DNA of 64,000 nt from Candidatus Brocadiaceae bacterium (GTDB lineage: Bacteria; Planctomycetota; Brocadiia; SM23-32): assembly GCA_012728835.1 (NCBI GenBank), contig JAAYEJ010000011.1:50990-114989 (forward strand), given 5' to 3'. Of the stretch, positions 2,485-29,004 are shown piece by piece. The first letter of the stretch is position 1. Every line of letters begins with the position of its first letter. A program made the translations under genes and the position numbers. The notes under the pieces are model-generated. The model did no database searches. It was given only the letters and a program-made list of their open reading frames with translations, and had not been told where the DNA came from.

Positions 2485-2613
2485 AATCCGAATGACGGCC
2501 ACGAGGGGTCCAGCCGGCAAGGGGCGCCGGCAGGATGGGCCGGGCACGGTTGGATGACATGGGGCAGTGGAAGGAATCCGGGAGGGGAGGATCCGCACGG
2601 AGGAAACAGGGCG

Positions 2614-4653: not shown

Positions 4654-4665
4654 CCGGCCGGGCCG

Positions 4666-7197: not shown

Positions 7198-7399
7198 CGC
7201 AATCTCCGCTCGTGTGATTCCCGGGAGAGCGCACCGGGACCGGCCATCGTATCCCGCCCCGTCGCACAGCGCAACAAGACGCTCCGACTGCGCCGGTCGC
7301 GAACCGCCGCATGGGGGATGCCGGCGCCGAGTCAAGCCCCCGGGGGACATCCATGATCCAGCCGGAACGCCTTCAGCCGCTGGGCAACCGTGATGATCG

Positions 7400-7789: not shown

Positions 7790-7831
7790 CGCCGGCCCGA
7801 CCCACTGAGGCCCCGGCCCGCCGGGCCGGAC

Positions 7832-12628: not shown

Positions 12629-12635
12629 ATTCCTC

Positions 12636-13166: not shown

Positions 13167-13912
13167 GGCGTCTCCTCCCGCATCGTGGTCAGGTACGGCA
13201 GGAACTCGCGCCGGCCCACTTCGGCGGCCGCCGTGCCCTTCTCAAACAGCGCGCCGGTCGGGCAGACCTGCACACACTTGCCGCAACCGGTGCACGTCTT
13301 GGACTCGCCCCAGGGGCCGTCGAAGTCGGTGATGACCCGCGATTCGATGCCGCGCCCCTTCACGCCCCAGGTGCGGGCGCCTTCGATCTCGGCGCAGACG
13401 CGCACACAGCGCATGCACAGGATGCAGCGGTTGTGGTCGATGGTGAACCGCTCGTGCGTGGCATCCACGCCCACACGCGGGTGCAGGTAGGCCACGCTGA
13501 CATGGTTCATGCCCAGGTCGCGGGCCAGCGTCTGCAGTTCGCAGTGGCCGTTGGCCACGCAGACGGCGCAGACGTGGTTGCGTTCGGCGAAGAACATCTC
13601 CAGGATCATGCGCCTGTACTTGTTGAGGCGCGGCGACTTCGTGATGACCTCCATCCCCTCGGCGACGCGGGTCACGCAGGCGGGCACCAGTCGCGGGCTG
13701 CCGACGATCTCCACCAGGCAGAGGCGGCAGGCGCCCACGCCGCTGAGGCCGTCCAGATGGCAGATCGCGGGGATGCAGATGTTGTGCTCGCGTGCGACCT
13801 CCAGGATGGTCTGATCTTCACGGCCGCTGACGTCGAGGCCGTCGATCTTGAGCGTCTTGACCGGCCGCGGAGCGCTCTCCGGGGTGACGGGATTCACGGG
13901 TGGAGTCTTCAT
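13163..13912 (-). CDS. hoxU: Hydrogenase diaphorase iron-sulfur subunit (NuoG-N-terminal-like, 2Fe-2S plus 4Fe-4S clusters).
   Basis: This is the C-terminal 249 aa of the fused 772-aa track ORF, starting MKTPPVNP (ATG 13912, overlapping the hoxF stop). It has 2Fe-2[16 protein letters not shown] and ferredoxin-like [11 protein letters not shown] / [12 protein letters not shown] motifs. Confidence 0.85.
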
Positions 13913-15558: not shown

Positions 15559-16048
15559 CGGCGATCATCCTCCGGATACGTCCCAGTACGTCCTCGGGCG
15601 TCAGCTTGCCGGCCACCTCGCCGTCGAAGGTCGCCGCCGGGGCCAGGCCGCAGGAGCCGAAGCACCGCGCGGTCAGCAGCGAAAGCTTGCCGTCGGCCGT
15701 CGTCTCGCCGGGCTTCAGGCCGTACTCCTGCTCCACGGCATCCAGAAGCGCCTGGGCGCCCTTGATGTAGCAGGCCGTGCCCGTGCACACCACGCACGCA
15801 TGCTCGCCCTTGGGCTTCAGCGTGAAAAAGTGGTAGAAGGTGGCCACGCCGTAGACGGCGCTGGGGGCCACGTGCAGGCTCGCCGCCACGTAGCGCAAGG
15901 CCTCGTCGTCGAGATAGCCGAATGCCTCCTGCACCGCGTGCAGGACCTCGATCAGCGCGTTCCGCTGGTAACCGAGGCGACGCATGGTCGCCGCAACGAT
16001 CTTCCACCGGCGGTCGTCCGAGGGGGGCTCGGGCCGCACAGAATCCAT
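15548..16048 (-). CDS. hoxE: Hydrogenase diaphorase 2Fe-2S subunit (NuoE-like).
   Basis: Internal Met (MDSVRPEPP) is at 16048. The 166-aa product has a thioredoxin-like fold, and the cluster Cys residues ([15 protein letters not shown]) are present. It is the first gene of the hoxEFUYHW operon. Confidence 0.8.
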
Positions 16049-16323
16049 GGCAGCGCTCCTCGCTCCGGAGTCGACGTTCGGAGCGGCGGATGGAGAGAAC
16101 GTTCGTGAAGTACGGACCTTTGTCGGCTCTGGACGGCCGCAGACAGGCGGGCAGTCAACCCGACCACTCATGGTATACAGCCCGGCCGACGGCTTCAAGG
16201 GAAAACGCCGGGATCGTCCGTGAGAATCCCCTCGGGTCGCCCCGCCCTATCCCCGGTCGCCGTTTGACTGCAGGGCCGGGCAGGGCTACGATGGGGGCTT
16301 CCCGCCGCACTGCTTCCGGGACC

Positions 16324-18279
16324 ATGTCGATGCGACTGAGGCTCCAGACTCGGGTCTTCCTGACCTTCGTGCTCGTGGTCGTGCTCTTCGTGCTCCTGTG
16401 CGCGGGGGCCGGCGCGATCATCATCGGGCGCACGGTCCTGGAGGAGGCCCAGCGGCGCGTCGGAGGCGATCTGCGATCGGCCTGGGCGGCAGTCAATGAC
16501 CGCAAGGAGAGCATGGGGCTCCTGATGGCCATGCTGGCCGGCGCCGAACCCATACGGGAGGCCTGCGTCAGCGCGAACCCGGCAACGTCGAGGATGCGTA
16601 TGGAGACGGCGCGCCGGCTGGGCGAGCTGGACTTCGTGTCGGTCGTCGACGCCGACGGACGCGTCGTGCTGCGCACCGTCGAACCCCACTCGCCCGGCGA
16701 CGACCTGTCGACCGATCCGTTCGTCTACCGGGCGCTTCGCGGCGAGACGCTGAGCGGATTCGCGATCCTCGAGCCCGAACGCCTGGAGGCCGAGGGACGC
16801 ACACTGGCCCGGCGCGCCTACATCGCCTTCGAGCCCACGCCGAAGGCCAAGCCGCGCCCCCAGGAGAGCGAGGCCGCCGGGATGGTCCTGATGGCCGCTG
16901 CGCCCATCCGGGACGACGGCGGGCGCATCCTCGGCGCCGTCTACGGCGGCGCACTGCTGAACCGGAACCACGACACGGTCGACGACATCCGCTCCACGGT
17001 CTTCGCCGACGAGACCTACAACGGGAAGCAGATCGGCGCCGTCACCGTCTTCCAGTGGGACGTCCGCATCGCCACCAACGTGTTCACCGCCGACGGCAAC
17101 CGCGCCATCGGCACGCGGGTGAGTTCGCAGGTGTATGACCAGGTGCTGGAGAACGGCCGGAGCTGGACGAGCCGCGCGTTCGTCGTGAACGACTGGTATC
17201 TGTCCGCCTACGATCCGATCCGGGACGTCGAAGGCCGCGTCATCGGCATCCTCTACGTCGGCGTGCTGGAGAGCCGGTTCAACGTGGTGCGCTCGCGCCT
17301 GTGGATGTTCTACGGGGCCCTCGCACTGGCGGCCGCCCTGCTGGTGCTCATCGTGGGCTACATCTTCTCGCGCCGCCTCACGCGGTCGCTGAGCGGGCTG
17401 GCCCGGGCCGCCGACCGCCTGGCCGCAGGGCGCCTGGACGTGCGCGTGCCGGAGCCGGCCGCCAATGACGAGGTGCGCGACCTGACGCGCGACTTCAACG
17501 CCATGGCCGACCGCCTGGAGGAACGCGAGGAACGCCTCCGGAACGCCAACGCCTCCCTGCAGAAGCTCAACTCCAGCTACCTGGAGATGCTCGGGTTCGT
17601 CTCCCACGAGCTGAAGAACACCCTCGGCGTCATCTACACCGCCGCACATGCGCTCTCCGAGGGGCTGGTCGGCCAACTCACCGAGCCCCAGGCCCGCATG
17701 GCCGGCAGCATCTGCCGCAGCATCGACACGGCCGTGAGCATGACGCGCAACTACCTGAGCCTGGCCCGCATCGAGAAGGGCGAGCTGGAGGTCGACCGGA
17801 AGCCCTGCGATTTCGTCCGCGACGTGGCCACCCCCGTGCTGGCCGAGTTCGCCCAGCCGATGGCCGACCACAAGGTCCGCCTCGTCAATGAACTGCCCCC
17901 CAGCGCCCCGCTGAAGGCCGACGCCAACCTGCTGTGCGTCGCCTTCCGGAACCTGATCGGCAATGCATTGAAATACGGTCGCCCAGCCGGGACAATACGC
18001 ATCGGCTTCTCCTCCGAACCCGACCGCTACCGCGTCGAGGTCTGGAACGACGGCCGAAGCATCCCGGCGGAGGAAGCCGAGCACATATTCCAGAAGTTCA
18101 CGCGCCTGTCCGACGACCCGGAGGCGGTCCGCAAGGGCACCGGGCTCGGGCTGTTCATCACCAGGGAGGTCGTCACGAAGCACGGCGGGGACATCTGGGC
18201 CGAACCGGGAAAGGGGGAAGGCACCAGCTTCGTCTTCACACTGCCCCGGGACGGTCAGCGAACCGATGCCGAAGTGTGA
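16324..18279 (+). CDS. Sensor histidine kinase: TM1, large periplasmic sensor domain (~280 aa), TM2, HAMP, HisKA, HATPase_c.
   Basis: Start MSMRLRLQTRVFLTFVLVVVLFVLL. A second TM segment at ~320, HAMP (RRLTRSLSGLARAADRLAAGRLDVRV), H-box LGFVSHELKNTL, and N/G boxes (NLIGNALKYG ... GTGLGLFITREVV). It is divergent from hoxE. Confidence 0.75.
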   Translation: MSMRLRLQTRVFLTFVLVVVLFVLLCAGAGAIIIGRTVLEEAQRRVGGDLRSAWAAVNDRKESMGLLMAMLAGAEPIREACVSANPATSRMRMETARRLGELDFVSVVDADGRVVLRTVEPHSPGDDLSTDPFVYRALRGETLSGFAILEPERLEAEGRTLARRAYIAFEPTPKAKPRPQESEAAGMVLMAAAPIRDDGGRILGAVYGGALLNRNHDTVDDIRSTVFADETYNGKQIGAVTVFQWDVRIATNVFTADGNRAIGTRVSSQVYDQVLENGRSWTSRAFVVNDWYLSAYDPIRDVEGRVIGILYVGVLESRFNVVRSRLWMFYGALALAAALLVLIVGYIFSRRLTRSLSGLARAADRLAAGRLDVRVPEPAANDEVRDLTRDFNAMADRLEEREERLRNANASLQKLNSSYLEMLGFVSHELKNTLGVIYTAAHALSEGLVGQLTEPQARMAGSICRSIDTAVSMTRNYLSLARIEKGELEVDRKPCDFVRDVATPVLAEFAQPMADHKVRLVNELPPSAPLKADANLLCVAFRNLIGNALKYGRPAGTIRIGFSSEPDRYRVEVWNDGRSIPAEEAEHIFQKFTRLSDDPEAVRKGTGLGLFITREVVTKHGGDIWAEPGKGEGTSFVFTLPRDGQRTDAEV

Positions 18280-18740: not shown

Positions 18741-19442
18741 CTACCTGCCGGCCGGATCCCGCCCGGCCGGCGCCCCCGGAACGTAGCGCTCCGCCCGGTG
18801 GCGTACGATCTCCCCGCACGTCATGTAGATGACGTCCTCGGCGATGTTCGTGGCGTGGTCGGCGATCCGCTCCAGATGGCGGGCCACCGACAGGAGATGG
18901 ATCAGAGCCCCCATCTGCCCGGGATGCTCGCGGATCGCGTTCTGCACCTGCAGGTAGACGTCCCGGTTCATGGCATCGACCTCGTCGTCGGCCGCGCACA
19001 CCGTCCTGGCCAGCGCGGCGTCCAGGTTGACCAGCGCATCCAGGCTCTGCTTGACCATGGCCTGCGCGCCCTGGGCCATGGCGGCGAAGTCGAAGGGCCA
19101 GTCCACCCGGTCGTGCGTGGCCAGGTACTGCGCCCGCTCGGCGATGTTGACCGCCAGGTCGCCGATCCGCTCCAGGTCGCTGTTGATCTTCAGCACGGCC
19201 ACGATGAACCGCAGGTCGATGGCGACGGGCTGATGGAGGGCCAGGATCTTCAGGCACTCCTCCTCGACGTCCACCTCGGCGCGATCGACGTCCGGGTCCG
19301 AGTCGATGACGCGTTGCGCCAGGCGCTCGTCCCGCCGCTCCAGGGCCAGGACGGCGTTCCGCACGCCCTCTTCGACGAGCGCGCTCAGCGACAGCATCTG
19401 CTTCTTGAGACTCTCCAGCTCCCGGCGCAAATGGGCCGACAT
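18741..19442 (-). CDS. phoU: Phosphate transport system regulatory protein PhoU.
   Basis: 233 aa with two PhoU repeats (RIGDLAVNIAERA / RIADHATNIAEDV). It lies downstream of pstB on the same strand. Confidence 0.85.
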   Translation of the reverse strand: MSAHLRRELESLKKQMLSLSALVEEGVRNAVLALERRDERLAQRVIDSDPDVDRAEVDVEEECLKILALHQPVAIDLRFIVAVLKINSDLERIGDLAVNIAERAQYLATHDRVDWPFDFAAMAQGAQAMVKQSLDALVNLDAALARTVCAADDEVDAMNRDVYLQVQNAIREHPGQMGALIHLLSVARHLERIADHATNIAEDVIYMTCGEIVRHRAERYVPGAPAGRDPAGR

Positions 19443-19458
19443 GGCGCCTCCCTCCCCG

Positions 19459-20286
19459 CTATCCGAAACGCCCCGTGATGTAGTCCTCGGTCTCTTTCCG
19501 GCTCGGATTGGTGAATATCCGATCGGTCAACCCGTACTCCACCAACCGGCCCTCGTAGAAGAACGCCGTCAGGTCGCTGACACGGGCGGCCTGCTGCATG
19601 TTGTGCGTCACGATGATGATGGTGTACGCGCCCCGCAACTCGCCGATCAGGTCCTCGACCCGCGCCGTCGAACGCGGGTCGAGCGCCGAGGCCGGCTCGT
19701 CCATCAAGAGCACCTCCGGGTCCACGGCCAGGGCCCGCGCGATGCAGAGGCGCTGCTGCTGCCCGCCCGAGAGCGCCAGCGCGCTGTCGTTCAGCCGGTC
19801 CTTCACCTCCTCCCACAGGGCGGCCCGCACGAGACTGGCCTCGACGATCTCGTGGAGCCGGCGCCGGCCCCTGACCCCGTGCACACGAGGACCGTAGGCG
19901 ACGTTCTCAAAAACGCTCTTCGGGAATGGATTGGGCTTCTGGAAGACCATGCCCACGCGACGGCGCAGCAGGACCACGTCGACGTTCGGCGCATACAGAT
20001 CCTCGCCTTCGAGAGCGAGCAGACCTTCGGCGCGGCAGCCGGGAATCAGGTCGTTCATGCGGTTGATGGCCCGCAGGAACGTGCTCTTCCCGCAGCCGCT
20101 GGGGCCGATGATCGCCGTCACCCGGCCCTGGAGTATGGCCATGTCGACCGCCTTCACCGCCTCGTTGGCCCCGTAGTACACCGAGAACCCGCGGCTTGTG
20201 ACCACGGCATCGCCCGGAGCCGCAGAGGCGGAAGTCGTCGCATCGTCGGTCGATCGGTCCCTCGGCGCAGCCATGACACGATTCAC
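19459..20286 (-). CDS. pstB: Phosphate ABC transporter ATP-binding protein.
   Basis: Walker [10 protein letters not shown], signature [14 protein letters not shown], Walker B LLMDEP. The PstB-specific C-terminus is present. Confidence 0.9.
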
Positions 20287-20289
20287 GGA

Positions 20290-21636
20290 TCAACCCCTCA
20301 GTTTCCTGGTGACGCGGGCGCGCAGCACGACGGCCGCAGCATTCAGAAGCAGAACGACGCCGATCAAGGTCAGCACCATGCCATACTGCACGTGTCGGAT
20401 CTCGTCCACGGCGGCGTGCTCGGTGGCCAGGTTGTAGATGCTCCAGGGCAGCGCCGGCGTCGGGTGCGTGAAGACCTGCCGCAGCGTCGGCACCGCCCCC
20501 AGACTGACGGCCGCGGTGAAGATGATCGGCGCCGTCTCGCCCGCCGCCCGGCCCATGCTCAGGATGATGCTCGTCAGCACGCCGGGCAGGCAGGCCGGCA
20601 GGACGACGGTGAACGTCGTGCGCCACTTCGTCGCCCCCAGGCTCAGGGCGGCCTCCTTGTAGGTGGCCGGCACGGCACGCAATGCCTCTTCAGAGGCCCT
20701 GATGACGGTCGGCAGCACCAGGCAGGCCAGCGTGAGCGACCCGGCCAGCACGCTCCTGGACGGGGAGACCTGCAGGATGTTGATGAAGAACGCGCAACCG
20801 AACAGGCCGAACACGATGCTCGGCACACCGGCCAGCGTGTTGATGCAGGCGCGGATGGCGCTGATCCACCAGCCGCCTCCCGCGTATTCGGTCAGGTAGA
20901 CTGCCGACAGGATTCCCATCGGCCCGGCGACGAGCATCGCGCCGATCGTCAGGTAGAGGGTCCCCAGCACGGCCGGCCCGATGCCGCCGAAGAAATGCGA
21001 ATCCCGGGAGTCGTCCGTCAGGAACCGTCCGTAGAAGGTCAACCGCGGGCGGAGCATCTCCCGGGCATTCCCCTCGATGTGCGCGAAGATCGGCTCCAGC
21101 GAGGTGCCCCGGAACTGCTCGACCCGCGGCACGAGCACCTCCACGCCCATCTGCGCAGGATCGGAGTAGTCATAGGTCGTTGCGTAGAGCACCTCCCGCA
21201 GCTTCACCCGCGCCCGATCCCACCGAGTCTGGCCGTACTGCGCCCGGGGGAGCGCAGGCTGCGGCTCGCCCGGGAACGGCCCCAGCAGGGCGCGCAGCGC
21301 GGCCTTGAGTTCGTCGAGCCGTCCGCCGTACTCCCGGCGCTCGCCCCGGTCCATCTCACCCAACTCCTTTTCGAACTGTGCGATCGCCTCGTAGAGGGGC
21401 CTGCGCGCTTCAGCGGCCAGAGCCAGCTCCGCCCGGATCTCGTCGCGGTCCCCGCGGCCGAACAGCTCCAGCATCACGCGCCGATGCTCCACCGTGCCGC
21501 GGAACAGGAAGGCGCGTGACCCGCGCACGAACATCGGCCCGAGCAACACCGCCAGTGCCCCCGCCATGAGCAGGATCGCCATGACGCCGAGGCCGGAGAA
21601 GGCCCGGTCCATCGTCTTGCGGGTGCTCAGTTGCAC
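20290..21636 (-). CDS. pstA: Phosphate ABC transporter permease PstA (long-N-terminus type).
   Basis: 448 aa. It has the EAALSLGATKWRTTFTVVLP (EAA-loop) permease motif and follows pstC. Confidence 0.85.
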   Translation of the reverse strand: MQLSTRKTMDRAFSGLGVMAILLMAGALAVLLGPMFVRGSRAFLFRGTVEHRRVMLELFGRGDRDEIRAELALAAEARRPLYEAIAQFEKELGEMDRGERREYGGRLDELKAALRALLGPFPGEPQPALPRAQYGQTRWDRARVKLREVLYATTYDYSDPAQMGVEVLVPRVEQFRGTSLEPIFAHIEGNAREMLRPRLTFYGRFLTDDSRDSHFFGGIGPAVLGTLYLTIGAMLVAGPMGILSAVYLTEYAGGGWWISAIRACINTLAGVPSIVFGLFGCAFFINILQVSPSRSVLAGSLTLACLVLPTVIRASEEALRAVPATYKEAALSLGATKWRTTFTVVLPACLPGVLTSIILSMGRAAGETAPIIFTAAVSLGAVPTLRQVFTHPTPALPWSIYNLATEHAAVDEIRHVQYGMVLTLIGVVLLLNAAAVVLRARVTRKLRG

Positions 21637-21639
21637 GGC

Positions 21640-22791
21640 TCACTCCCCCGTCCTTCTCGAGCGGCGAATCGCCCATTCGCTCACCAGGTTGCAGACGAAC
21701 GAGATGGTCAGCAGGCACAGGGCCAGGGCGAACAGCACATGGTAGCGATCGGAGCCCGTGACGTGATCCGCCTCCCCCATGTCGCCGGCGATGGTGGCCG
21801 TCACGGTGCGCACCGGCGCGAGCACGTTCCACCACGGCGAGGGGATCTGCGCGGCGTTCCCCGAAGCCATCCAGACCACCATCGTCTCGCCGACCGCCCG
21901 CATCGCGCCCAGAAGCACCGCGGCCAGGATGCCGCTGCGGGCCGCGGGCACCACGACCTTCACCACCGTTTCCATGCGCGTGGCCCCGAGGCCGTAGCTC
22001 GCCTCGCGCAGTTCACGGCCCACGGTGCTGAGCGCGTCCTCGCAAACGCTCACCACCGTCGGCAGGGCCATGATCCCGAGGATGATCGAGACGTTCAACG
22101 CCGTCGTCCCACTGGCGATGGCCATGCCGTGCAGGGCGCGCGCCGCCGCCCCCACCGCCCCCAGGCAGGCCGCGCCGAACAGAACCCCGGCCGGCACCGC
22201 CACCGCCCGCCGCGCCCCCCCCCTCAAGCAGCCCGATGCCAGGTCGCCGAAGACGACGGCCGCCAGCACGGCGAGCGGCACGCCCACCACCAGCGTGCCC
22301 AGTGCCAGCACCCGTCCTCCGTGCTCCTGCAACAGCGGGGCGAACACGACCAGCGCGAAGAACCCGTAGGCGACCGACGGGATCGCGGCCAGGACCTCGA
22401 TCACCGGCTTGACGGCCTGCCGCAGGCCGAACGGAAGCACGTCGCTCAGGCAGACGGCCGCGGCGATTCCCATCGGGCCGGCCACGACCATGGCGCCGAA
22501 GGTCACCATCGCGCTGCCGTAGAACAGCGTCAGGGCCCCGAATTCAGCCGGCTCCCGCGAAGGATACCACCGGGTGCCGCCGAAGAACTCGCCCAGGCCG
22601 CGGGAGCGGAAGAACGGGAGGGCGTCCCGGATGATCGAGTGGAAGATGAAGAGGATCACCGTGGCCGAACCTACCGCGATGGCGAACAGGAACGCCTCCC
22701 CCGCAAAGGAGGCCAGCCGCGCAAGCCGGCCGGCCCTCCTCTCCCTGACCAGGGCGCGGGGGCGGTGATGCTTCATGCCCTTCCTCCTCAC
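21640..22791 (-). CDS. pstC: Phosphate ABC transporter permease PstC.
   Basis: 383 aa. EAA-like loop EASYGLGATRMETVVKVVVP. The start could instead be Met 6 (22776). Confidence 0.85.
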   Translation of the reverse strand: MRRKGMKHHRPRALVRERRAGRLARLASFAGEAFLFAIAVGSATVILFIFHSIIRDALPFFRSRGLGEFFGGTRWYPSREPAEFGALTLFYGSAMVTFGAMVVAGPMGIAAAVCLSDVLPFGLRQAVKPVIEVLAAIPSVAYGFFALVVFAPLLQEHGGRVLALGTLVVGVPLAVLAAVVFGDLASGCLRGGARRAVAVPAGVLFGAACLGAVGAAARALHGMAIASGTTALNVSIILGIMALPTVVSVCEDALSTVGRELREASYGLGATRMETVVKVVVPAARSGILAAVLLGAMRAVGETMVVWMASGNAAQIPSPWWNVLAPVRTVTATIAGDMGEADHVTGSDRYHVLFALALCLLTISFVCNLVSEWAIRRSRRTGE

Positions 22792-22818
22792 GACGTTCTC
22801 GAAGCCGCACCCGGGTGC

Positions 22819-23679
22819 TCAGCGGTAGTTCGTGACCGGCACGAACCCGAGCCCCTCGACGATCTCCTGCCCCTTCGGCGTCAGGTGCAGCGTGGTATAG
22901 GCGTAGAGGTGGCTTCCCAGCGTCGGGTAGCCGCTGGTGAACAGGAACAACGGCCGGGCGATCGGGTAGCGACCGTTGACCACGGTGGCCGGCGTCGCCT
23001 CGACGCCGTTGATCTGCAGGCTCTTCACGGTCCTGTCCACGAAGCCGAGCCCGACGAAGGCGACGGCCTGCCGGGTCGTCTGCACCCTGGAACGCGCGGC
23101 GCCGTTGCTGCCGACGTACTCGGTGCCGGCGCCCATCTTCTCATTGCCCATCACAAGGCCCTGGAAGGTCTCGTAGGTGCCGCTGTTCGTGTCGCGGCTG
23201 ACGGCCACGATGTCCAGGTTCGGGCCGCCCACCTGGCTCCAGTTCGTCACCCTGCCCGTGTAGATGTCCCGCACCTGCGCAACCGTCAACCCGGTGACGG
23301 GATTCGCAGGATGCACGATGACGGCGATCCCGTCCAGCGCCACGACGTGCGCCACCGGCATCACGCCCCCGTCGATGGCCGCCTTGAACTCGCTGTCCTT
23401 CATGAAGCGCGACATCATGGCGACGTCGCAGGTGCCGTTGACCAGGCTCTTGGCTCCGTTGCCGCTTCCGGACTCGCTGACCGACACCGTCTCCCCGGGG
23501 TTCTGCCGCATGTAGTGCTCAGCAAAGGCTTTGCCGATCGGTCCGACGGTCGTCGAGCCGTCCACGACGATGCTCTTCTTCTCCGCGTCCTGCCCGTGCA
23601 CGATCGCCCCCGTGCCCGCCAGGCCCAGGGCCAGGGCCACCAGAAGGCCACCGGCCAACACTCCCTGCCTCCGCTTCAT
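22819..23679 (-). CDS. pstS: Phosphate-binding periplasmic protein PstS.
   Basis: An internal Met of the 611-aa track ORF (MKRRQGVLAGGLLVALALGLAG...), with ATG at 23679 preceded by GGAGAGGAG. It is 286 aa with a signal peptide and the PstS fold motifs (GSGNGAKSL, SRDTNSGTYETF). Confidence 0.85.
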   Translation of the reverse strand: MKRRQGVLAGGLLVALALGLAGTGAIVHGQDAEKKSIVVDGSTTVGPIGKAFAEHYMRQNPGETVSVSESGSGNGAKSLVNGTCDVAMMSRFMKDSEFKAAIDGGVMPVAHVVALDGIAVIVHPANPVTGLTVAQVRDIYTGRVTNWSQVGGPNLDIVAVSRDTNSGTYETFQGLVMGNEKMGAGTEYVGSNGAARSRVQTTRQAVAFVGLGFVDRTVKSLQINGVEATPATVVNGRYPIARPLFLFTSGYPTLGSHLYAYTTLHLTPKGQEIVEGLGFVPVTNYR

Positions 23680-23804
23680 CCTGCAGCTCCTCTCCCGATG
23701 CCCGCCCTTCAGAAGTCTCGAGCGCGACCGCCGCGCCTGCAGTTGATTGTCTTGCGTCCCCGTTAGGATCGCCTTAAGACCACGTGACTTCTGCATTGCC
23801 GCCG

Positions 23805-23836
23805 GCCCTCCGTACAGCAGGAGCGGGCCCGGGCGG
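23805..23836. terminator. Perfect 14-bp GC stem-loop (GCAGGAGCGGGCCC-gggc-GGGCCCGCTCCTGC) flanked by a CTCCGTACA direct repeat. Likely an intrinsic terminator or insulator between the secretin operon and the pstS promoter.
   Basis: It is read directly from sequence. It lies ~40 nt downstream of the secretin-B stop (23874) and ~130 nt upstream of the pstS start. There is no U-tract, as is common in high-GC genomes. Confidence 0.45.
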
Positions 23837-23873
23837 GCCCGCTCCTGCGGCTCCGTACAAAGCCTGCGGCCGT

Positions 23874-25400
23874 TCAATCCGTGCCCAGAAGCCACATATC
23901 GAAGCCGTATGCCGTCTTCGGCAACGGCAGGTGCGCGTGCCGGAGCACCTGGGCGCGCACCAGTCTGTCCTCCTCGCGCGCCAGTTCCTTGTGCACCTCG
24001 CTGAACTGGACGACGCGGGGGTTGAGCACGATGACCATCTCGGTGGTGCGGCGGGAGTTCTTCTCGCTGCCGAACAGGTGACCCAGGACAGGAATGCTCC
24101 CCAGCAGCGGGATCCTGGCGGTGGACTTCACGTCCTCGGTGCGTTTGAGGCCGCCGATGCAGACCTCCATGCCATCGCGCATCAGGACGGTGCCGGCCAC
24201 GGCGTTGTTGCGGACCATCGGCGTGCCCGAGGGAGTCGCGCCGATGATGCCGTTCATTTCGACGGCGTAGAGCAGTTCGGTCGTCTCCAGGCCGATGTAC
24301 GGTGTCAGGCTGAGTTCCAGGCCGACCTGGACGTCGCCGTTTCGCGTCAGACACCGCCCCTCCCACACGTCGTCGACGAAGGAGGCGCTGTCGTCCGTGC
24401 CGTCGACGGCGCGCTGGTCCAGTTCGTCCGGGCAGATGTCGAAGTGCAGCACCTCGTCGGCTGCCGACAGCGTGCCCACCTCGCCATTGCGGACGTTCAG
24501 CCGCCCGCTGGTGACGAGGCGCGCGCGGCCCTTGCGCACCATGAAATCGACGAACTCCGAGGTGAGCACGAAGTTGAGGCCGGCGTAATGGCCGCTCGCT
24601 GCCTCGCTGGACCCCCACCGCACGCACTGGAAGAGGTCCCTGCCGGGGCCGCACTTCCAGGCCACGAAGTCCAGCCCGAGGCTCAGGTCGTTGGTCAGTT
24701 CCACCTCGTAGACGGCCACGTCGAGCAGCAACTGAGGCGGGAAGACGTCGACCTCTTCCGCAATCTGCACGTATCTGGCCACGCGTGTGGGCTCGCCGCG
24801 GCAGAATATGGAATTCGCCGTGGTGTCGATGATGATCGTGCCGCCGTCGCCTCCGGCCGGCACGCGGGCGATCGCGTCCAGGTCTGCGGCATCCCGGAAC
24901 CGCGCCCTGTAGTAGGCCTGCTGCGACCCGTCGACGTCTTCCTGGAGCCAGGCCACGTCGAGGGCCTTCAGGGCCTCCTCGATGTAGGGCAACTGGAACT
25001 CGGGGGCGATCACCTGCAGCCAGGCCTTGCCGGCCACCTTGTCACGGATCACCTCGGCGCGCCCGCCCTCCTTGGCCGTGATCGTCCGGAAGACGTTGCG
25101 GACCTCGCGCGCAGACGCATTGTGGATCGGGTAGACGCCCACGACGTAGTCGTTGACCAGGTTCTTCTGGTTGACGCGCAGGACCTTCACGGTTGCGTCC
25201 TCACGCGCGTCGATGTTGATCTGCTCGTCCTGGAAGACGTAGTTGTCGATGCCGCTGGCGGTCGCCGTCGGGCTCGGATCCCCGCGGCGATTGGCCACGC
25301 CGGAGGCCTCGTCGCTGCCGCCGGCCGATGCGGTTCCGGCGGCGAACAGGCAGATGCCGAGGGCCGCCATCAGGACTGCGTGTTTGCCCGTGCTGCTCAT
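23874..25400 (-). CDS. Secretin-family outer-membrane channel protein (GspD/PilQ superfamily), paralog B.
   Basis: ATG 25400 (Met 17 of the track ORF; GAGGAGG RBS), signal peptide MSSTGKHAVLMAALGICLFAAGTASA. The C-terminal secretin signature is ARIPLLGSIPVLGHLFGSEKNSRRTTEMVIVLNPRVV. Confidence 0.75.
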   Translation of the reverse strand: MSSTGKHAVLMAALGICLFAAGTASAGGSDEASGVANRRGDPSPTATASGIDNYVFQDEQINIDAREDATVKVLRVNQKNLVNDYVVGVYPIHNASAREVRNVFRTITAKEGGRAEVIRDKVAGKAWLQVIAPEFQLPYIEEALKALDVAWLQEDVDGSQQAYYRARFRDAADLDAIARVPAGGDGGTIIIDTTANSIFCRGEPTRVARYVQIAEEVDVFPPQLLLDVAVYEVELTNDLSLGLDFVAWKCGPGRDLFQCVRWGSSEAASGHYAGLNFVLTSEFVDFMVRKGRARLVTSGRLNVRNGEVGTLSAADEVLHFDICPDELDQRAVDGTDDSASFVDDVWEGRCLTRNGDVQVGLELSLTPYIGLETTELLYAVEMNGIIGATPSGTPMVRNNAVAGTVLMRDGMEVCIGGLKRTEDVKSTARIPLLGSIPVLGHLFGSEKNSRRTTEMVIVLNPRVVQFSEVHKELAREEDRLVRAQVLRHAHLPLPKTAYGFDMWLLGTD

Positions 25401-25444
25401 CTCGTCGCCTCCTCTTGCGGGTTCGGAGTCGGGAAGGGTGGAGG

Positions 25445-26914
25445 TCACTCGGTGCCCTCGCGGTCAAAGAGCCACTGATCGAATCCGGCTTCGGTGGCCG
25501 GCGTCTGCACGGGCACCCGGCGGCGGGCCCGCGCGCGGATCAGCGCCGCGTCGATCTCGGTGTTGGCCCCGCCCATGGCACCGAAATCCCGGACGACGGC
25601 CGCCGAGAGAACGACGACGACGTTGCGCCGTTTGACCAGGTTCTGCTCGCTGCCGAACAGCCATCCGAGGACGGGCAGGCTGCCCAGAACCGGGATCTTG
25701 TTGCTCTGCTGCACCATCATCTCGCGGCCGTAGCCGCCGAGGACGACCTCTTCGCCGTCCTTGACCCGCAGGGAGGTGTCGAAGCTGCGCGCCACGAGCT
25801 GGGGCCGGCCGGTCGAGTCGAACCCCGTGTGGCCGGTCACTTCCAGTTCCAGGTCCAGCGTCACCCCCTGCGTGCCGACCAGTGGCTGCACCTTCAGCCG
25901 GACGCCGGACCGGGCGCTGTCCAGGGCGCGCTCTCGCTGGTCGCCGACCACGACGCGGTCGTCCACGCCGGCCCGCAGGCTGGTCCGCCAGTAGAAGATG
26001 TGGTCGCCGACGTCGATGACGGCCGGCCTGTCGTGCCGCGAGATCACCTTGGCGCTCGTCAGCACGCGGGCTTTGTCCTTGGCCACGAGGAAATCGAAGA
26101 ACCCGCTGTGCATGTTGAGCCGGTAGCTGTAGTGGTTGCTCGGCCCGCCGATCGAGTACCCGGGCACGTCGTCGGTCTCGGAGAGGAAGCCGCCGGCAAA
26201 GAGTTCGCGGCCGGGCCCGTTCTTCCACGACACGTAGTCCAGCCCGAGCGCCGTGTCGTTCTCCACGTTCACCTCGTAGAGAGTCGCCTCGATCATCACC
26301 TGCGCCGGGGGCTGGTCCAGCTCCGGCAGCCATCGTTCGATATCCTCGATGGCGCTCGGCACATCCTGGAACAGGTAGGCATTGACCGGCAGGTCCGCCA
26401 CCTGGTCACCGGTGGCCCGGTTCGGCGAGAGCACGGCATTGACCAGGGCGACGAAGGACGGATCGGCCACGCTCCGGTGCCGGGGGCGGTAGTAGAGCGT
26501 CCTGTCGCCCGACGACGTCGTCAGGCCCGGCACGTCGATGACCTCCATCAGCCGGTCGAGATACGGGATCTGGTAGATGGGCACCATCACGACCGCCTTG
26601 CCGCTTCGGACCGACCCGTGAGGGTCCGCCGGATCTTCGGGCTTGCCGTAGAGGAACCAGGCCCCCTCCTCGATCTCCGTGCTGCGGCGGATGAAGCGAA
26701 TCACCTCGTACGGGTTCACGTTGTCCAGGTCGTAGACCTTCGGCACGTAGCGGTTCGTCTGCGCCTTGTTGGTGGTACGCAGCACCCGGATCAGCGTCGT
26801 GGGCGCTTCGCCGGGTGACCGGAACTCCGCCCCGACCTCGCCCTGGGCGGCCGCACAGGGAGCGGCGCACAGAGCCAGAAAGACCGCTGTGAAGAGAGCC
26901 CTCCGCTTCATCAA
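25445..26914 (-). CDS. Secretin-family outer-membrane channel protein, paralog A.
   Basis: 489 aa, signal peptide MMKRRALFTAVFLALCAAPCAAA. Secretin signature NKIPVLGSLPVLGWLFGSEQNLVKRRNVVVVLSAAVV. It shares a C-terminal GFDxWL tail with paralog B. Confidence 0.75.
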   Translation of the reverse strand: MMKRRALFTAVFLALCAAPCAAAQGEVGAEFRSPGEAPTTLIRVLRTTNKAQTNRYVPKVYDLDNVNPYEVIRFIRRSTEIEEGAWFLYGKPEDPADPHGSVRSGKAVVMVPIYQIPYLDRLMEVIDVPGLTTSSGDRTLYYRPRHRSVADPSFVALVNAVLSPNRATGDQVADLPVNAYLFQDVPSAIEDIERWLPELDQPPAQVMIEATLYEVNVENDTALGLDYVSWKNGPGRELFAGGFLSETDDVPGYSIGGPSNHYSYRLNMHSGFFDFLVAKDKARVLTSAKVISRHDRPAVIDVGDHIFYWRTSLRAGVDDRVVVGDQRERALDSARSGVRLKVQPLVGTQGVTLDLELEVTGHTGFDSTGRPQLVARSFDTSLRVKDGEEVVLGGYGREMMVQQSNKIPVLGSLPVLGWLFGSEQNLVKRRNVVVVLSAAVVRDFGAMGGANTEIDAALIRARARRRVPVQTPATEAGFDQWLFDREGTE

Positions 26915-27669
26915 TCCGTCCTTTCCTGAGGAGATTCGCCGATTTCGAGAGCCTTGACGACACCGCTGTACGCGTTGACGGTGAAGGCCGCAGGCGCGCT
27001 CAGCGGATCATCCTCCGCGCCCAGCAGGACAACCCACACGTAGAGGCCGGTCTCCCCCAGCGGCACCAGAACCGCCCGGGCCGGCACGGTCCCATCGGCC
27101 CCCCCCTTCTCCCTTGCCAGGGCGACGGCCTGTCGGCGGACAACGATGCCCGAATAGGGGTCTCGCTCGAACATCCGCTCGTGCGACACGGCGAACGGCG
27201 CCGGCTCGGAGTAGCAGGTCGACAGAGGCGGCGAACCGGCCTCGGCCCCGCGGCAGCCGCTCAGGCCGACCATGAGCCCCCACTCGCCCGCCTCATCCGT
27301 CAGATCGCAGAACAGGAACGTGCGCCCGGTGCTCTCCCCCGGAGAGATGAGGCGGGGCTGCCCGGCGGCCTGGTTGGGGAGCACGGGCCGGCGCACCAGG
27401 AGTTCTCCCACGCCCGGCCGGCCCCGGCGGAACTTCAGCCCGTCGTTGTCCAGAGAGGGCACGAGCAGATCGCAGGCGCCCACGTTCGTCACGCTCACGG
27501 CCGCCCTCACCGGCTCGCCCCGTGCGTAGGTCGCCGAATCCAGCGAGAGCCGCACCTCCGCCGCGTGATCCGGCGGCCTCGTTGCCGCACAACCGACGGA
27601 CGCCGCCAACGCGGCGACCACGGACAAGAGCACGACGACGGACCGAATGCTTCTGACTCCCGTGAACAT
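26911..27669 (-). CDS. Predicted lipoprotein (signal peptide plus lipobox VGC), unknown function. Candidate secretin-associated (pilotin-like) component.
   Basis: ATG at 27669 (AGGAGGG RBS). MFTGVRSIRSVVVLLSVVAALAASVGC. Its stop overlaps the secretin-A start (26911/26914). Confidence 0.5.
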   Translation of the reverse strand: MFTGVRSIRSVVVLLSVVAALAASVGCAATRPPDHAAEVRLSLDSATYARGEPVRAAVSVTNVGACDLLVPSLDNDGLKFRRGRPGVGELLVRRPVLPNQAAGQPRLISPGESTGRTFLFCDLTDEAGEWGLMVGLSGCRGAEAGSPPLSTCYSEPAPFAVSHERMFERDPYSGIVVRRQAVALAREKGGADGTVPARAVLVPLGETGLYVWVVLLGAEDDPLSAPAAFTVNAYSGVVKALEIGESPQERTD

Positions 27670-27851: not shown

Positions 27852-28043
27852 TCAGGACGGCGCCGACTGCGCCGAGCAGCAACATGCCGGTCCCTTTGAT
27901 GACAGCTGCAGGGGCCAGTCCTTGAGCAGGTCCGACAGGCGGCGTCGGGAGTGCCGCCACGCGGAAAAGTGTACAATCGATGCCGCCCAAGCCGCAACCA
28001 AACCGAACGCGATCAGGGAACCCATCAGTGAGCAGTCCGGCAT
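27852..28043 (-). CDS. Candidate small single-TM membrane protein (63 aa).
   Basis: ATG 28043 is preceded by a very strong SD (GGAAGGAGGTGAAGGGAC-ATG). There is a hydrophobic helix LMGSLIAFGLVAAWAASIV. It sits in a local lower-GC patch between the phoBR remnant and the lipoprotein gene. Codon usage is weaker than in neighbours. Confidence 0.25.
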   Translation of the reverse strand: MPDCSLMGSLIAFGLVAAWAASIVHFSAWRHSRRRLSDLLKDWPLQLSSKGPACCCSAQSAPS

Positions 28044-28185
28044 GTCCCTTCACCTCCTTCCTCACGGACGCTCGTCGAGCGAGCGCGCCTGTTGCCGAAT
28101 GGAAGGTTAATGCAGGGATGTTAGGGCAGGATGGAGGGCGAATGAGATTCGCGGGAGGTCCACCGGCCCGGACGCGGGACGCGAT

Positions 28186-28905
28186 CTACGCCGGCAGGAC
28201 CAGGCAGAAGGTGCTGCCCTCCCCCACGCGGCTCTGCACCGTCACCTGCCCGCCGTGCACCCTCGCGATGTGCTGCACGATGGCCAGGCCCAGCCCCGTG
28301 CCGCCGAGCGCCCGGCTCCGCGACTTGTCCACGCAGTAGAACGGCTCGAAGATGCGCTCGAGATGCTCGCCCGGAATGCCGCAACCGTGGTCGCGCACGC
28401 AGATGCGCACCCGCGAGTCGGCCCGGTCGGCCTCCACGGTCACCGTGGCCCCGTCGGGGCTGTACTTGACGGCGTTGTCCAGCAGGTTGACCAGCGCCTG
28501 CTCGATCAGCCGCGGGTTCATGCGCGCCTCGAGCGACGGCGGGCAGGAGGACTCGATGCGGATCCGTCGGTCGCCGGCTCGAGGTTCGCAGTCGGCGATC
28601 GCCGCGCAGATGACCTCCGCCGGATCGGTCGGTCTGAGGTCGATGGCTTCGGCCGCGGCTTCCCGTTCGATGCGGTAGAGGGCCAGCAGGTCGTCGATGA
28701 TGCGCAGGTCGCGATCGACGGCGATGACGCCCTCGGCCATGCTGGCCAGCACCGCCTCGTGCTCCCGGTTCTGGCGGCTGACCGTCTCGATGTGCTCGCG
28801 CAGGCCGGCGGCCAGGACCTGGTAGCCTTCGCGGGCCAGGCTGTAGCTGACGAGCTGGACGATGTCCTCCTCGTCGTCGACGACCAGCACGCTTTCTCGG
28901 GCCAT
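28186..28905 (-). pseudogene. In-frame phoB-phoR fusion remnant: receiver N-terminus (~34 aa) joined to a PhoR-like PAS start, then jumping into the distal HisKA helix and an intact HATPase_c. It lacks the phospho-acceptor His and the receiver Asp.
   Basis: MARESVLVVDDEEDIVQLVSYSLAREGYQV (REC N-terminus); LASMAEGVIAVDRDLRII (PAS start); DDLLALYRIEREAAAE (end of HisKA); NLLDNAVKYSPDG...DHGCGIPGEHLERIFEPFYCVDKSRSRALGGTGLGLAIV (N, G1, F, G2 boxes). No H-box was found. Confidence 0.5.
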
Positions 28906-29004
28906 GGCGGCTCCCTGACCACAGGACGCTTGATGCCCTTCATCGTCGCGCCGGACGGTTAGGATACGACAAAGGCCGAGTCAAAGAACCGTGTGGCAGC
29001 CGCC

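Follow-up and report, generated by a model that had tools for sequence, protein, structure and literature searches.

A conserved lipoprotein and paired-secretin module between phosphate regulation and phosphate transport genes in a Brocadiaceae bacterium

Gene content of the locus and features of the encoded proteins

The 64 kb stretch of DNA analysed here (the window) carries at positions 23874-27669 three co-directional open reading frames that encode a lipoprotein and two secretins, A and B; these and all other features described below lie on the minus strand. The first-pass annotation had described a lipoprotein gene and two secretin paralogues at this site, and both the reading frames and a search with the Pfam profile PF00263, which it had proposed, bear this out. 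The accessory lipoprotein (26911..27669; 252 aa) has a signal peptide and a lipobox in which AALAASVG precedes Cys27. It is followed by secretin A (25445..26911; 488 aa; PF00263 97 bits), the representative of the first-position class, and by secretin B of the second-position class (23874..25400; 508 aa; PF00263 74 bits, Secretin_N 38.6 bits). The coding signal is strong in all three genes (GC3 0.84-0.91). The stop codon of the lipoprotein gene and the start codon of secretin A overlap (TGATG), and according to gene calls the two reading frames run 4 nt into each other in several close relatives. For secretin B, the ATG 45 nt past the stop codon of A is a more likely start than the overlapping GTG, which would place 16 acidic residues before the signal peptide; the JGI annotation picks the same ATG. 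A pairwise alignment of A and B spans 458 residues with 31% identity (E 3e-56).

Secretin A consists of a Sec signal peptide, a conserved LRTTNKAQTNRYVPKVY motif, two ring-type N domains, a WKNGPGR motif, the secretin domain, and a GFDQWL tail, and B has the same architecture. The GFDxWL end common to both proteins, which had been noted earlier as unusual, is a signature that marks the family in both of its paralogue classes. The AlphaFold2 model of A contains only two beta-alpha-beta-beta-alpha N domains between signal peptide and secretin domain, profile searches detected no STN/N0 domain in A or B, and the second N domain of A aligns to the repeated N domains of GspD, with the best match to the copy just before the secretin domain. 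No space thus remains for an N0 docking domain, and both secretins appear to lack it. The long beta-hairpins in the monomer model are those usual for a gated double barrel, with no sign that the pore is constitutively open or selective for anions.

The best fold and sequence matches of A and B are GspD/PulD structures (PDB 5wq8, 5zdh, 6hcg), with T2SS GspD structures as top Foldseek matches of the A model (~15% identity, E 1e-18). Shared features are the secretin domain with its IPxLGxxPxLGxLF loop, the ring-type N domains in front of it, and a C-terminal tail past the barrel. Yet A and B differ from GspD/PulD not only in their low identity, the apparent absence of N0, the restriction to two N domains, and the WKNGPGR motif, but also in always occurring as two paralogues with no gsp genes nearby. 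Although relatives are publicly labelled GspD/PulD, the scores of A and B are far below the cut-offs of the equivalog models for GspD (TIGR02517; 117 and 99 versus 351), PilQ (86 and 65 versus 284), SctC (76 and 62 versus 238), and MshL (92 and 72 versus 250), and likewise far below that of the HofQ model. About 140 profile positions, including the WKNGPGR motif, are specific to this twin-secretin family.

The earlier suggestion that the lipoprotein is a pilotin found no support, as it matches no pilotin family. We obtained no Pfam or NCBIfam match for this protein, and its AlphaFold2 model (pLDDT 81) combines an Ig-like beta-sandwich (residues ~37-165) with a small alpha/beta PepSY-like domain (~178-241), whose fold matches are generic Ig-like proteins and the PepSY domain of YpeB. 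A secretin complex of Deinococcus radiodurans, DR_0774 (PDB 8co1), contains a bound IPT/TIG accessory protein; because Ig-like folds are generic this fold match is only a lead, and unlike the A/B pair, DR_0774 is a single secretin of much larger size.

Directly downstream of the secretin genes lies an intact pst-phoU block (18741..23679) encoding a high-affinity phosphate importer, with pstS (22819-23679), pstC (21640-22791), pstA (20290-21636), pstB (19459-20286), and phoU (18741-19442; PhoU Pfam match). On the other side, a phoB-phoR remnant (28186..28905) forms an in-frame deletion fusion of 239 aa, so that the placement of the module between the pst operon and a phoBR remnant proved correct. 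An alignment with the complete PhoB and PhoR proteins encoded at a related locus (L011) shows that the remnant joins PhoB ~20-50, PhoR ~238-273, and PhoR 413-588. Missing from it are the receiver Asp, DNA-binding domain, sensor/transmembrane part, and HisKA. HATPase_c is its sole Pfam match, it resembles PhoR/PnpS, and an identical copy is present in two independent metagenome assemblies (ENA, JGI). Between the remnant and the lipoprotein gene, a small open reading frame (orf63; 27852..28043) encodes 63 aa with one hydrophobic helix and no Pfam match. It has a strong Shine-Dalgarno sequence and was called as a gene by the JGI and ENA pipelines; its status is uncertain, and in relatives the same Shine-Dalgarno sequence directly precedes the lipoprotein gene. 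A GC-rich extended hairpin without a T-tract (23798..23870; -57.1 kcal/mol, z -4.0) starts directly past the stop codon of secretin B, and its folding stability was reached by none of 200 shuffled sequences. It is probably a terminator, an attenuator, or an RNA-stabilising element that separates the secretin operon from pstS.

Conservation of the module and absence of secretion machinery

We compared 80 related loci, with duplicates removed, from Planctomycetota, Sumerlaeota, and Lentisphaerota. Wherever the available sequence is long enough, an A-type match is followed by a B-type match, and at 73 of the 80 loci gene calls yield two neighbouring secretin genes in the same orientation, in most cases separated by less than 112 nt. 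The nearest neighbour of each sequence shares its positional type in 112 out of 112 cases, which indicates that the split between A and B is ancient; identity amounts to 37-39% inside a class and 28% between classes. Local tandem duplication is therefore rejected as an origin of the pair. A lipoprotein homologue is located directly upstream of the secretin pair at 50 of the 80 loci, with a lipobox in 32 of these 50 homologues; lipoprotein and secretins thus co-occur in relatives, and the trio is a conserved module across three phyla. The universal pairing in fixed order and the ancient split make it plausible that A and B form one mixed (heteromeric) ring, for which we consider the odds to be even.

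The module had been regarded as an orphan because no cognate machinery was seen nearby, and this holds for a much larger sample. A Pfam analysis of every sizeable open reading frame in the 64 kb window revealed no ATPase, platform, pilin, or alignment genes of T2SS, T4P, T3SS, or Tad systems, and no T2SS_E, T2SSF, PilMNO, or GspC-type family. Nor did we find secretion ATPase, platform, pseudopilin-operon, or GspC/PilP-like genes in ~74 related neighbourhoods, a survey that covered the recurrent neighbour clusters and a scan of the 25 commonest families of 230 flanking proteins. Prepilin-like genes occur within 10 kb of the pair at six Sumerlaeota loci, and a T2SS or T4P locus devoid of its own secretin may exist elsewhere in this genome or in those of the relatives.

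Linkage to phosphate regulation

The first-pass annotation had hinted at a historic link to Pho regulation. The link is stronger than that, with synteny of phoBR and pst in two phyla and Pho-box-like repeats upstream of the module. The order phoB-phoR-lipoprotein-A-B-pstSCAB-phoU recurs in relatives with 42-63% identity, and orthologues of PstS at the same position are 59-71% identical. The complete series from response regulator and histidine kinase through lipoprotein, A, B, pstS, pstC, pstA, and pstB to phoU is present at L007, L011, L012, L013, L017, and L018; L010 and L019 start no earlier than the module itself and cover the pst side of this order. In Sumerlaeota, L051 has response regulator, histidine kinase, lipoprotein, A, B, and a PstS-like gene, and L042 has lipoprotein, A, B, pstS, pstC, pstA, and pstB. 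The Pho-linked loci are mostly from one Planctomycetota clade, and most Sumerlaeota pairs and all Lentisphaerota pairs do not adjoin pst.

Direct repeats resembling a Pho box (CTTAAGGC-gat-CCTAACGG; 23760..23778), spaced by 11 bp, precede the ATG of pstS by ~85-100 nt and represent the only YTAA-N7-YTAW match on either strand of the window. Two half-sites (CCTAACAT and ATTAACCT; 28104..28125) precede orf63 and the lipoprotein operon with a spacing of 14 bp, whereas relatives carry 11-bp-spaced repeats at the equivalent position. A third site, CCTAAC (28958..28963), is found 53 nt upstream of the start of the phoBR remnant. YCTAAC occurs only three times in the window, and each of these sites precedes pstS, the module, or the phoBR remnant (chance probability ~2.5e-7). 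In relatives, the target intergenic regions, 4.2 kb in total, contain 11 of the 21 YCTAAC sites (P 4.5e-16). The 11-bp-spaced form is enriched upstream of lipoprotein and pstS genes, with 8 occurrences in 5.0 kb of target DNA versus 4 in 48 kb of non-coding sequence elsewhere (Fisher P 2e-6), and L051 has four consecutive 11-bp repeats. The repeats match the consensus CTTAACCT of the cyanobacterial SphR Pho box with its 8+3 bp periodicity (PMC1906773) and are putative PhoB sites. In the source organism the regulation of the module may be altered, owing to the destruction of the cognate phoBR and to a half-site spacing that deviates by 3 bp; the three genes themselves are intact.

Possible roles of the paired secretins

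In the Pho-linked clade, we consider it highly probable that the trio forms a conserved, autonomous module that is controlled by Pho. Our full interpretation, to which we assign a probability of about 0.4, is that this autonomous outer-membrane module serves phosphate acquisition, including inward transport. As a member of the Pho regulon, encoded between phoBR and pstSCAB-phoU, it would be transcribed from a promoter with the Pho-box-like repeats. A and B would cooperate, a single mixed ring being the likeliest arrangement, with the dedicated lipoprotein assembling or modulating it, and under phosphate limitation this gate would pass phosphate or small phosphorus compounds to periplasmic PstS, presumably without an inner-membrane partner. 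To our knowledge, no secretin has been described for small-solute uptake and every characterised secretin works with an inner-membrane machine, and this missing precedent weakens the proposed uptake of small solutes, as do the gated barrel of the monomer model and the prepilin-like genes near some pairs. If correct, the interpretation would represent a new use of the secretin pore family.

The module would fill the place held in Proteobacteria by phosphate-starvation porins such as OprP/OprO of Pseudomonas aeruginosa, which are encoded by tandem paralogues, and PhoE of Escherichia coli. These, too, are outer-membrane channels whose genes are controlled together with Pst, and we propose them as functional analogues; they are trimeric 16-stranded beta-barrels, in contrast to multimeric secretins, and the likeness thus concerns the proposed function only and not family membership. 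Porins are among the standard members of the Pho regulon (PMC1906773).

An export route is possible, though it seems to us the less likely direction: A and B might serve as the way out through the outer membrane for a T2SS-like or pilus-like machine encoded elsewhere, through which phosphate starvation would lead to the release or surface exposure of phosphatases, phosphodiesterases, PstS/DING-like proteins, or the lipoprotein itself. The fold of both secretins is closest to GspD of the T2SS, secretin genes are sometimes unlinked from their own machines, and the Pho linkage fits export equally well. The Hxc system of P. aeruginosa, a Pho-regulated T2SS with the secretin HxcQ and the substrate LapA, provides a secretin that serves phosphate scavenging under phosphate-starvation control; it is however a complete T2SS cluster with one self-lipidated secretin, whereas the module has no machine, two secretins, and a separate lipoprotein. 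In Caulobacter crescentus, the lipoprotein ElpS is made and secreted during phosphate starvation (PMC2996285). Hxc and ElpS are precedents for Pho-regulated secretion through secretins, which counts against uptake. ElpS is a substrate, whereas the lipoprotein of the module is conserved across contexts unrelated to phosphate, a pattern more in keeping with a structural partner than with a variable substrate. A gene for an NPP-type phosphodiesterase adjoins the module at L004 and is found within a few genes of it at L031 and L034, and the L051 pair is followed only by a PstS-like gene; both observations fit export. Machine genes are nevertheless missing from the ~74 neighbourhoods in three phyla, N0, which couples secretins to inner-membrane partners, appears to be absent, and several pairs per genome are found in unrelated contexts. 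A non-canonical, non-protein cargo of secretins is known from the GspD/PilQ 'slime nozzles' of myxobacteria and cyanobacteria (PMC12475490), which act in export and are single canonical secretins with no Pho link, in this respect unlike A and B.

It is rather unlikely that A and B are ordinary secretins of the organism's own T4P or T2SS whose position beside pst is inherited synteny without functional meaning, as the public GspD/PulD labels, the concentration of Pho-linked loci in one Planctomycetota clade, and the pairs away from pst in the two other phyla might suggest. Their scores far below every curated cut-off argue against this, as do the obligate pairing and dedicated lipoprotein, which are foreign to known pilus and T2SS secretins, the recurrence of the phoBR-module-pstS order in a second phylum, and the location of Pho-box-like repeats before the module itself and not before pstS alone. 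Still less probable is a gated portal for macromolecular phosphorus such as extracellular DNA or polyphosphate. Secretins are the only outer-membrane channels that we know to admit DNA, the Pho linkage would fit, a phosphodiesterase gene neighbours the pair at some loci, and PilQ/HofQ set a precedent for inward traffic. However, PilQ/HofQ require a retractile pilus and competence proteins and carry AMIN and N0 domains, A and B score far below the respective cut-offs, no competence pilus, ComEA, or ComEC gene was found near the pair at any locus, and urea, amino-acid, and solute importers are ill-suited neighbours for DNA uptake. We regard it as very improbable that the module is a relic unused since the loss of phoBR and turning into pseudogenes: while the reduction of phoBR to an in-frame remnant, the 14 bp instead of 11 bp spacing, and the extra small reading frame between promoter region and lipoprotein gene are compatible with decay, the three genes are full length with high GC3, all family motifs are intact, the sequence is identical in independent assemblies from different samples, and pstSCAB-phoU is intact as well.

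Outside the Pho-linked loci, a transporter gene is present within two genes of the pair at roughly one fifth of the loci, a rough count that is not clearly above that for random positions. Hints at a role in nutrient uptake more generally come from a Sumerlaeota MAG with three pairs, located next to pst (L042), next to a urea-type ABC importer (L076), and at a further site (L025), and from other pairs that adjoin genes for urea carboxylase and allophanate hydrolase, for Liv-type ABC importers, or for a sodium:solute symporter.

The two secretins and their lipoprotein

The first-pass annotation had described a lipoprotein gene followed by two tandem secretin genes at window positions 23874-27669, and this arrangement was confirmed: three ORFs are present, both secretins have secretin Pfam matches, and GFDxWL ends both proteins. 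All three ORFs are co-directional on the minus strand and show a strong codon-position bias (GC3 0.84-0.91; the window has a G+C content of about 70%). The first gene (26911-27669) encodes a protein of 252 aa whose N-terminus, MFTGVRSIRSVVVLLSVVAALAASVG followed by C, is a signal peptide with a lipobox, and which is identical to a public hypothetical protein (locus tag GXY85_01485). Its stop codon overlaps the start codon of secretin A (25445-26911; 488 aa, with a Sec signal peptide) in the sequence TGATG. The 488-aa form with an ATG start is the one on record for secretin A; an exact-sequence look-up of a 489-aa form starting at TTG gave no match. For secretin B (23874-25400; 508 aa), the most probable start is an ATG located 45 nt past the secretin A stop codon, in agreement with the JGI gene call. 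The two secretins are 31% identical across 458 residues, and DNA identical to the locus is present in both ENA and JGI metagenome assemblies.

Both proteins belong to the secretin superfamily, with PF00263 scores of 97.1 (A) and 74.2 bits (B) against a Pfam gathering cut-off of 27.5 bits; for Secretin_N (cut-off 28.2 bits), B passes with 38.6 bits and A stays below with 21.4 bits. The HMM searches proposed in the first-pass annotation thus upheld the secretin identity, but they yielded no subfamily assignment, as all scores fell below the respective cut-offs: TIGR02517 for T2SS GspD (A 117.1, B 98.8 bits; equivalog cut-off 351), TIGR02515 for PilQ (86 and 65; cut-off 284), the MshL model (92 and 72; cut-off 250), TIGR02516 for T3SS SctC (76 and 62; cut-off 238) and the HofQ model (67 and 38; cut-off 554). 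The scores for GspD, PilQ, MshL and SctC are about three to five times under the cut-offs, and no AMIN or PilMNOP families were found with Pfam in A, B or the neighbours of the module. A and B are bona fide secretins outside every defined functional class (GspD, PilQ, MshL, SctC, HofQ).

In the AF2 monomer model of secretin A (mean pLDDT 65), two beta-alpha-beta-beta-alpha N domains (residues 55-125 and 137-198) are followed by a secretin domain with long hairpins and a IPVLGSLPVLGWLF loop. The best Foldseek matches of this model are T2SS GspD structures (E about 1e-18, about 15% identity). In a profile search against PDB sequences, the second N domain resembled the repeated N domains of GspD, best the one preceding the GspD secretin domain, while only the C-terminal half of the barrel aligned and about 140 family-specific positions remained unmatched. 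No STN/N0 families were detected in A or B at E<=0.01, and the roughly 145 residues between signal peptide linker and barrel, modelled as two N domains, leave no space for N0. From sequence and model, both secretins thus appear to lack the GspC-docking N0 domain as well as the N0-N1-N2-N3 architecture.

A database search with secretin A retrieved 277 relatives from Planctomycetota and Sumerlaeota, the named ones being annotated as GspD/PulD or hypothetical protein. A scan with one genome per species found 512 relatives, and 77 of these loci were retrieved, from Planctomycetota (Brocadiia-like and Phycisphaerae-like), Sumerlaeota and Lentisphaerota/Victivallis. A search with the N-terminal and middle segments of A, which are specific to this family, recovered no more than 452 of 1.84 billion cluster representatives at E<=1e-3; the subfamily is small and lineage-restricted. 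In 73 of 80 non-duplicate loci, two secretin genes were called side by side and in the same direction, in most cases with an overlap or a gap below 112 nt; the remaining seven have a single called secretin gene, and at least some of these lie at contig ends or are mis-called. Gene calls are noisy in low-GC loci, and our statements on pairing and synteny therefore also rest on tblastn, which gave an A-like match and then a B-like one wherever a locus offered sufficient sequence.

The first- and second-position genes form anciently separated classes. We aligned 112 sequences and applied distance clustering and a nearest-neighbour test; the nearest neighbour belonged to the same positional class for 112 of 112 sequences. 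In Planctomycetota and Sumerlaeota the two positions form two clean clusters (49 and 51 sequences), Lentisphaerota have separate first and second clusters of their own, and identity is 37-39% within classes and 28% between them. Because nearest neighbours, clusters and identities all split by positional class, the duplication giving rise to A and B is older than the dispersal of the pair over these phyla, with both copies kept together in fixed order, a pattern expected of mutually dependent subunits. Of the A-type sequences, 53 of 55 contain a WK(N)GPG motif, as do 52 of 57 of the B-type, and the GF(D/E)xW tail is common to both classes; A-type sequences additionally show a near-invariant LRTTNKAQTNRYVPKVY motif.

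The lipoprotein gene travels with the pair: a homologue is located directly upstream of A in 50 of the 80 loci, in Planctomycetota and Sumerlaeota alike, and in several close relatives the two ORFs overlap by 4 nt according to the gene calls. This bears out the co-occurrence in relatives on which the first-pass annotation had staked its proposal. A lipobox is recognisable in 32 of these 50 homologues. The lipoprotein had also been put forward as a candidate pilotin; with its lipobox and its position upstream of A it does correspond to a small outer-membrane lipoprotein encoded with a secretin, but neither its sequence nor its fold matches the known pilotins (PulS/GspS, AspS, MxiM/ExsB or the TPR proteins PilF/PilW/TadD). 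The conserved GFDxWL tail of the secretins is a candidate for a lipoprotein- or pilotin-type binding site. In two Victivallis loci (L085, L086), no lipoprotein homologue was detectable beside the pair.

Putative phosphate-regulon setting of the module

In the window, the module is followed by pstS, pstC, pstA, pstB and phoU and preceded by a 239-aa kinase-like ORF and then carB. The order response regulator, histidine kinase, lipoprotein, A, B, pstS, pstC, pstA, pstB, phoU is found in six related planctomycetotal loci (L007, L011, L012, L013, L017, L018), and in two more (L010, L019), whose sequence begins at the module or later, the pst side is present. Secretin A of these eight loci is 42-63% identical to that of the window, and PstS is 59-71% identical in seven of them, the copy in L017 being divergent. 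In Sumerlaeota, one locus (L051) comprises a response regulator, a PhoR-like histidine kinase, the lipoprotein, A, B and a PstS-like gene, and another (L042) the lipoprotein, A, B, pstS, pstC, pstA and pstB. Linkage to phoBR/pstSCAB-phoU therefore extends over the window, eight planctomycetotal and two sumerlaeotal loci, and together with box-like repeats found upstream in the relatives it substantiates the link to Pho regulation at which the first-pass annotation had hinted.

Counting both strands, the hexamer YCTAAC occurs at only three sites in the 64-kb window, compared to nine expected; all three have the orientation of the genes and fall in promoter regions, those of pstS, the lipoprotein operon and the phoBR remnant, and the chance of such a placement is about 2.5e-7. 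In ten relatives, 11 of 21 YCTAAC sites are located in the regions upstream of lipoprotein or pstS genes, which total 4.2 kb (binomial P 4.5e-16), where they form direct repeats at 11-bp spacing, for example TCCTAACGGGA-TCCTAACACTC in L012, or four consecutive 11-bp repeats in L051. The looser pattern YTAA-N7-YTAW matched 8 times in 5.0 kb of target DNA versus 4 times in 48 kb of other non-coding DNA (Fisher P 2e-6), and its single match in the window lies upstream of pstS. The strict form CCTAAC-N5-CCTAAC, allowing 3 mismatches, was not enriched in the window (14 matches versus 16 expected); what carries the signal is how rare YCTAAC is and where it occurs, together with the looser pattern at 11-bp spacing. 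A scan for consensus sigma-70 promoters and terminators gave nothing useful in this high-GC organism.

In units and spacing, the 11-bp-spaced repeats near the module and pstS match the cyanobacterial SphR Pho box, which consists of tandem 8-bp CTTAACCT units with 3-bp linkers (PMC1906773). Judging by this likeness to CTTAACCT, we infer that the repeats may be bound by PhoB. On the grounds of the conserved phoBR/pst synteny and the shared upstream repeats, the module is regarded as a putative Pho-regulon operon in this clade. Directly past the secretin B stop codon there is a GC hairpin (-57 kcal/mol, z -4), and because this structure is very stable, a separate box-controlled promoter is probable for pstS. 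In a 61%-identical relative (L004; 8511-9255 and 13238-14743) the module is not located beside pst; its upstream region contains a sigma-70-like promoter (TTGACA-17-TATGCT) and the palindrome CGTTACCAAAAGTAACG rather than Pho-box repeats, and an NPP-type phosphodiesterase gene is convergent just downstream of the module.

Several changes are peculiar to the organism studied here. The kinase-like ORF upstream of the module (28186-28905, minus strand) is a phoBR remnant, a 239-aa in-frame ORF which arose by two deletions and joins residues ~20-50 of PhoB with residues ~238-273 and 413-588 of PhoR. It has neither the receiver aspartate nor the DNA-binding domain, and the sensor and the phospho-accepting HisKA are lost as well, so that no signalling residue is left and the cognate phoBR of the module is inactivated; the remnant is identical in two independent metagenome assemblies (ENA, JGI). 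In the relatives, 11-bp-spaced YTAA repeats are found upstream of the lipoprotein gene, whereas the half-sites in the window, CCTAACAT and ATTAACCT, are 14 bp apart, the pstS box being intact. In addition, a small ORF (27852-28043, minus strand; 63 codons, one hydrophobic helix) sits between the half-sites and the lipoprotein gene. It has a strong GGAAGGAGGTG Shine-Dalgarno sequence, which in relatives directly precedes the lipoprotein gene, and may be an insertion or partial duplication of the operon 5' end. With phoBR collapsed, the half-site spacing shifted and the small ORF interposed, the regulation of the module may be altered in this organism. A Cache-HAMP histidine kinase gene (15922-18279, plus strand) adjoins phoU; its start is probably further downstream than that of the longest ORF, which overlaps the neighbouring NuoE-like gene.

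Genomic neighbourhoods and possible function

The first-pass annotation had called the operon an orphan, and this description holds for the window as well as for about 74 related neighbourhoods. Pfam searches of all sizeable ORFs in the 64-kb window detected no secretion or pilus ATPase, platform, pilin or alignment protein and no T3SS genes, and neither gspC-M nor gspE/F was found in the window or among the neighbours at the ~74 loci. In an all-against-all clustering of about 1,200 neighbour proteins, the only recurrent neighbours besides the lipoprotein were two-component genes, pst genes and a few families of metabolic proteins or transporters; among the cluster representatives, Pfam detected no T2SS_E, T2SSF, PilM/N/O, GspC or similar families. 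The same families were also absent from the 25 commonest ones encoded within two genes either side of the module at the ~74 loci (117 upstream and 113 downstream proteins). In six Sumerlaeota loci a prepilin-like gene lies within 10 kb of the pair; we do not count this as a sign of a pilus, as only pilin-like N-termini and no machinery genes were present.

Sumerlaeota genomes hold the module in two or three copies whose surroundings differ (pst genes, a urea-type ABC importer, and others). For example, MAG SRP304446_co1_162 encodes three pairs, of which L042 adjoins pst, L076 lies upstream of a urea-type ABC importer and L025 is located elsewhere, and two copies (L061, L068) are located on one 6.0-Mb chromosome. 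Further pairs are placed after genes of Liv-type ABC importers (L068, L077) or after a sodium:solute symporter gene (L045, L053), and in the two Victivallis loci (L085, L086; ~2700-8100) the pair lies directly after urea carboxylase, allophanate hydrolase and alpha/beta-hydrolase genes in one orientation. Components of ABC importers are the commonest family of downstream neighbours (BPD_transp_1 14 of 113, PBP_like_2 8), mostly pst genes; a general enrichment of importers beside the pair was given less weight, because outside the Pho-linked loci their frequency is not clearly above chance.

Gene content and synteny lend good support to a conserved, autonomous three-gene outer-membrane module, in which two presumably interdependent secretins and a lipoprotein would act together under Pho control in this clade. 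Our main reading, to which we assign a probability of roughly 0.4, is that this Pho-controlled module serves phosphate uptake as an outer-membrane gate, which would admit phosphate or small phosphorus compounds to PstS. The main rival, export of phosphate-scavenging proteins by way of machinery encoded elsewhere, seems to us somewhat less likely. It has a precedent in the Hxc system. A second precedent for export is ElpS (PMC2996285). We favour the uptake gate because no inner-membrane partner is encoded nearby, because the docking domain seems to be missing, because the module lies between the regulator and the periplasmic binding protein like the phosphate porins of Proteobacteria, and because paralogous copies in one genome adjoin different importers. 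Against uptake, we know of no secretin involved in small-solute transport into the cell, and the secretin A model looks like a normal gated barrel. The likeness to OprP, OprO and PhoE, which are trimeric 16-stranded beta-barrel porins, concerns the proposed function only, whereas the fold of A and B is that of a secretin.

Lesser weight is given to three further explanations. A and B might be ordinary pilus or T2SS secretins unlinked from their machinery. The pair might also be a portal for DNA or polyphosphate, or the module a decaying relic; its phoBR genes are inactivated in the window, and the lipoprotein, both secretins and pstSCAB-phoU are intact.

Beyond phosphate uptake, A and B could form an obligate hetero-oligomeric ring which, with the lipoprotein, would be a machine-free, regulated outer-membrane nutrient gate, for phosphate here and for urea, amino acids or other solutes through the paralogues; this wider proposal we hold only tentatively and find somewhat less probable than the phosphate gate itself.

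The secretin fold is already known; the novelty lies in the combination of subunits, in the accessory protein, and in the autonomy and regulatory setting of the module. Our literature searches on orphan, tandem or heteromeric secretins, on secretins of Planctomycetes or Sumerlaeota, and on secretins and phosphate starvation found no description of the module, that is, of the paired secretins, the lipoprotein, or a secretin within a phoBR-pst cluster. To our knowledge, every characterised secretin is a homo-oligomer serving an inner-membrane machine (T2SS, T3SS, type IV or Tad pilus, phage assembly). The always-paired and anciently split duo with its own lipoprotein would differ from these in that it has no machine nearby in ~74 neighbourhoods from three phyla, apparently no docking domain, and a Pho-regulon wiring, and it would thus add a new architectural and functional class to the secretin family. 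Should the module serve export instead, an exit formed by two Pho-regulated secretins and a new accessory lipoprotein would be new as well. Uptake, if proven, would be a categorically new function for the secretin fold. Classical porins are little known in Planctomycetota and their relatives, and the module is a candidate route for phosphate, perhaps also for other nutrients, across the outer membrane of these poorly understood diderm phyla; the wider nutrient-gate proposal, if true, would mean a porin-like system of secretin fold in Planctomycetota, Sumerlaeota and Lentisphaerota.

Other gene clusters in the window

A large lipid or aryl-polyene-like biosynthetic cluster occupies positions 42812-63997 and includes several ketoacyl synthases, a LolA-like protein, an AMP-ligase, a thioesterase, a FabG-like reductase, acyltransferases and a methyltransferase, as well as two radical-SAM enzymes, of which one is SPASM-type and includes a carrier-protein domain and the other is B12-binding. 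At 11201-16198 (minus strand), genes for the large and small subunits of a NiFe-hydrogenase are located beside NuoE-, NuoF- and NuoG-like diaphorase genes, an arrangement suggestive of a bidirectional, NAD(P)-linked hydrogenase. Positions 34681-36603 (plus strand), beside guaA-like and carA/carB genes, encode a multi-pass membrane protein of 640 aa with DUF6785 and DUF6784 domains. Finally, two large paralogous Ig/FN3-rich proteins are encoded on opposite strands at 4-7350, around a protein with five CarboxypepD_reg repeats.
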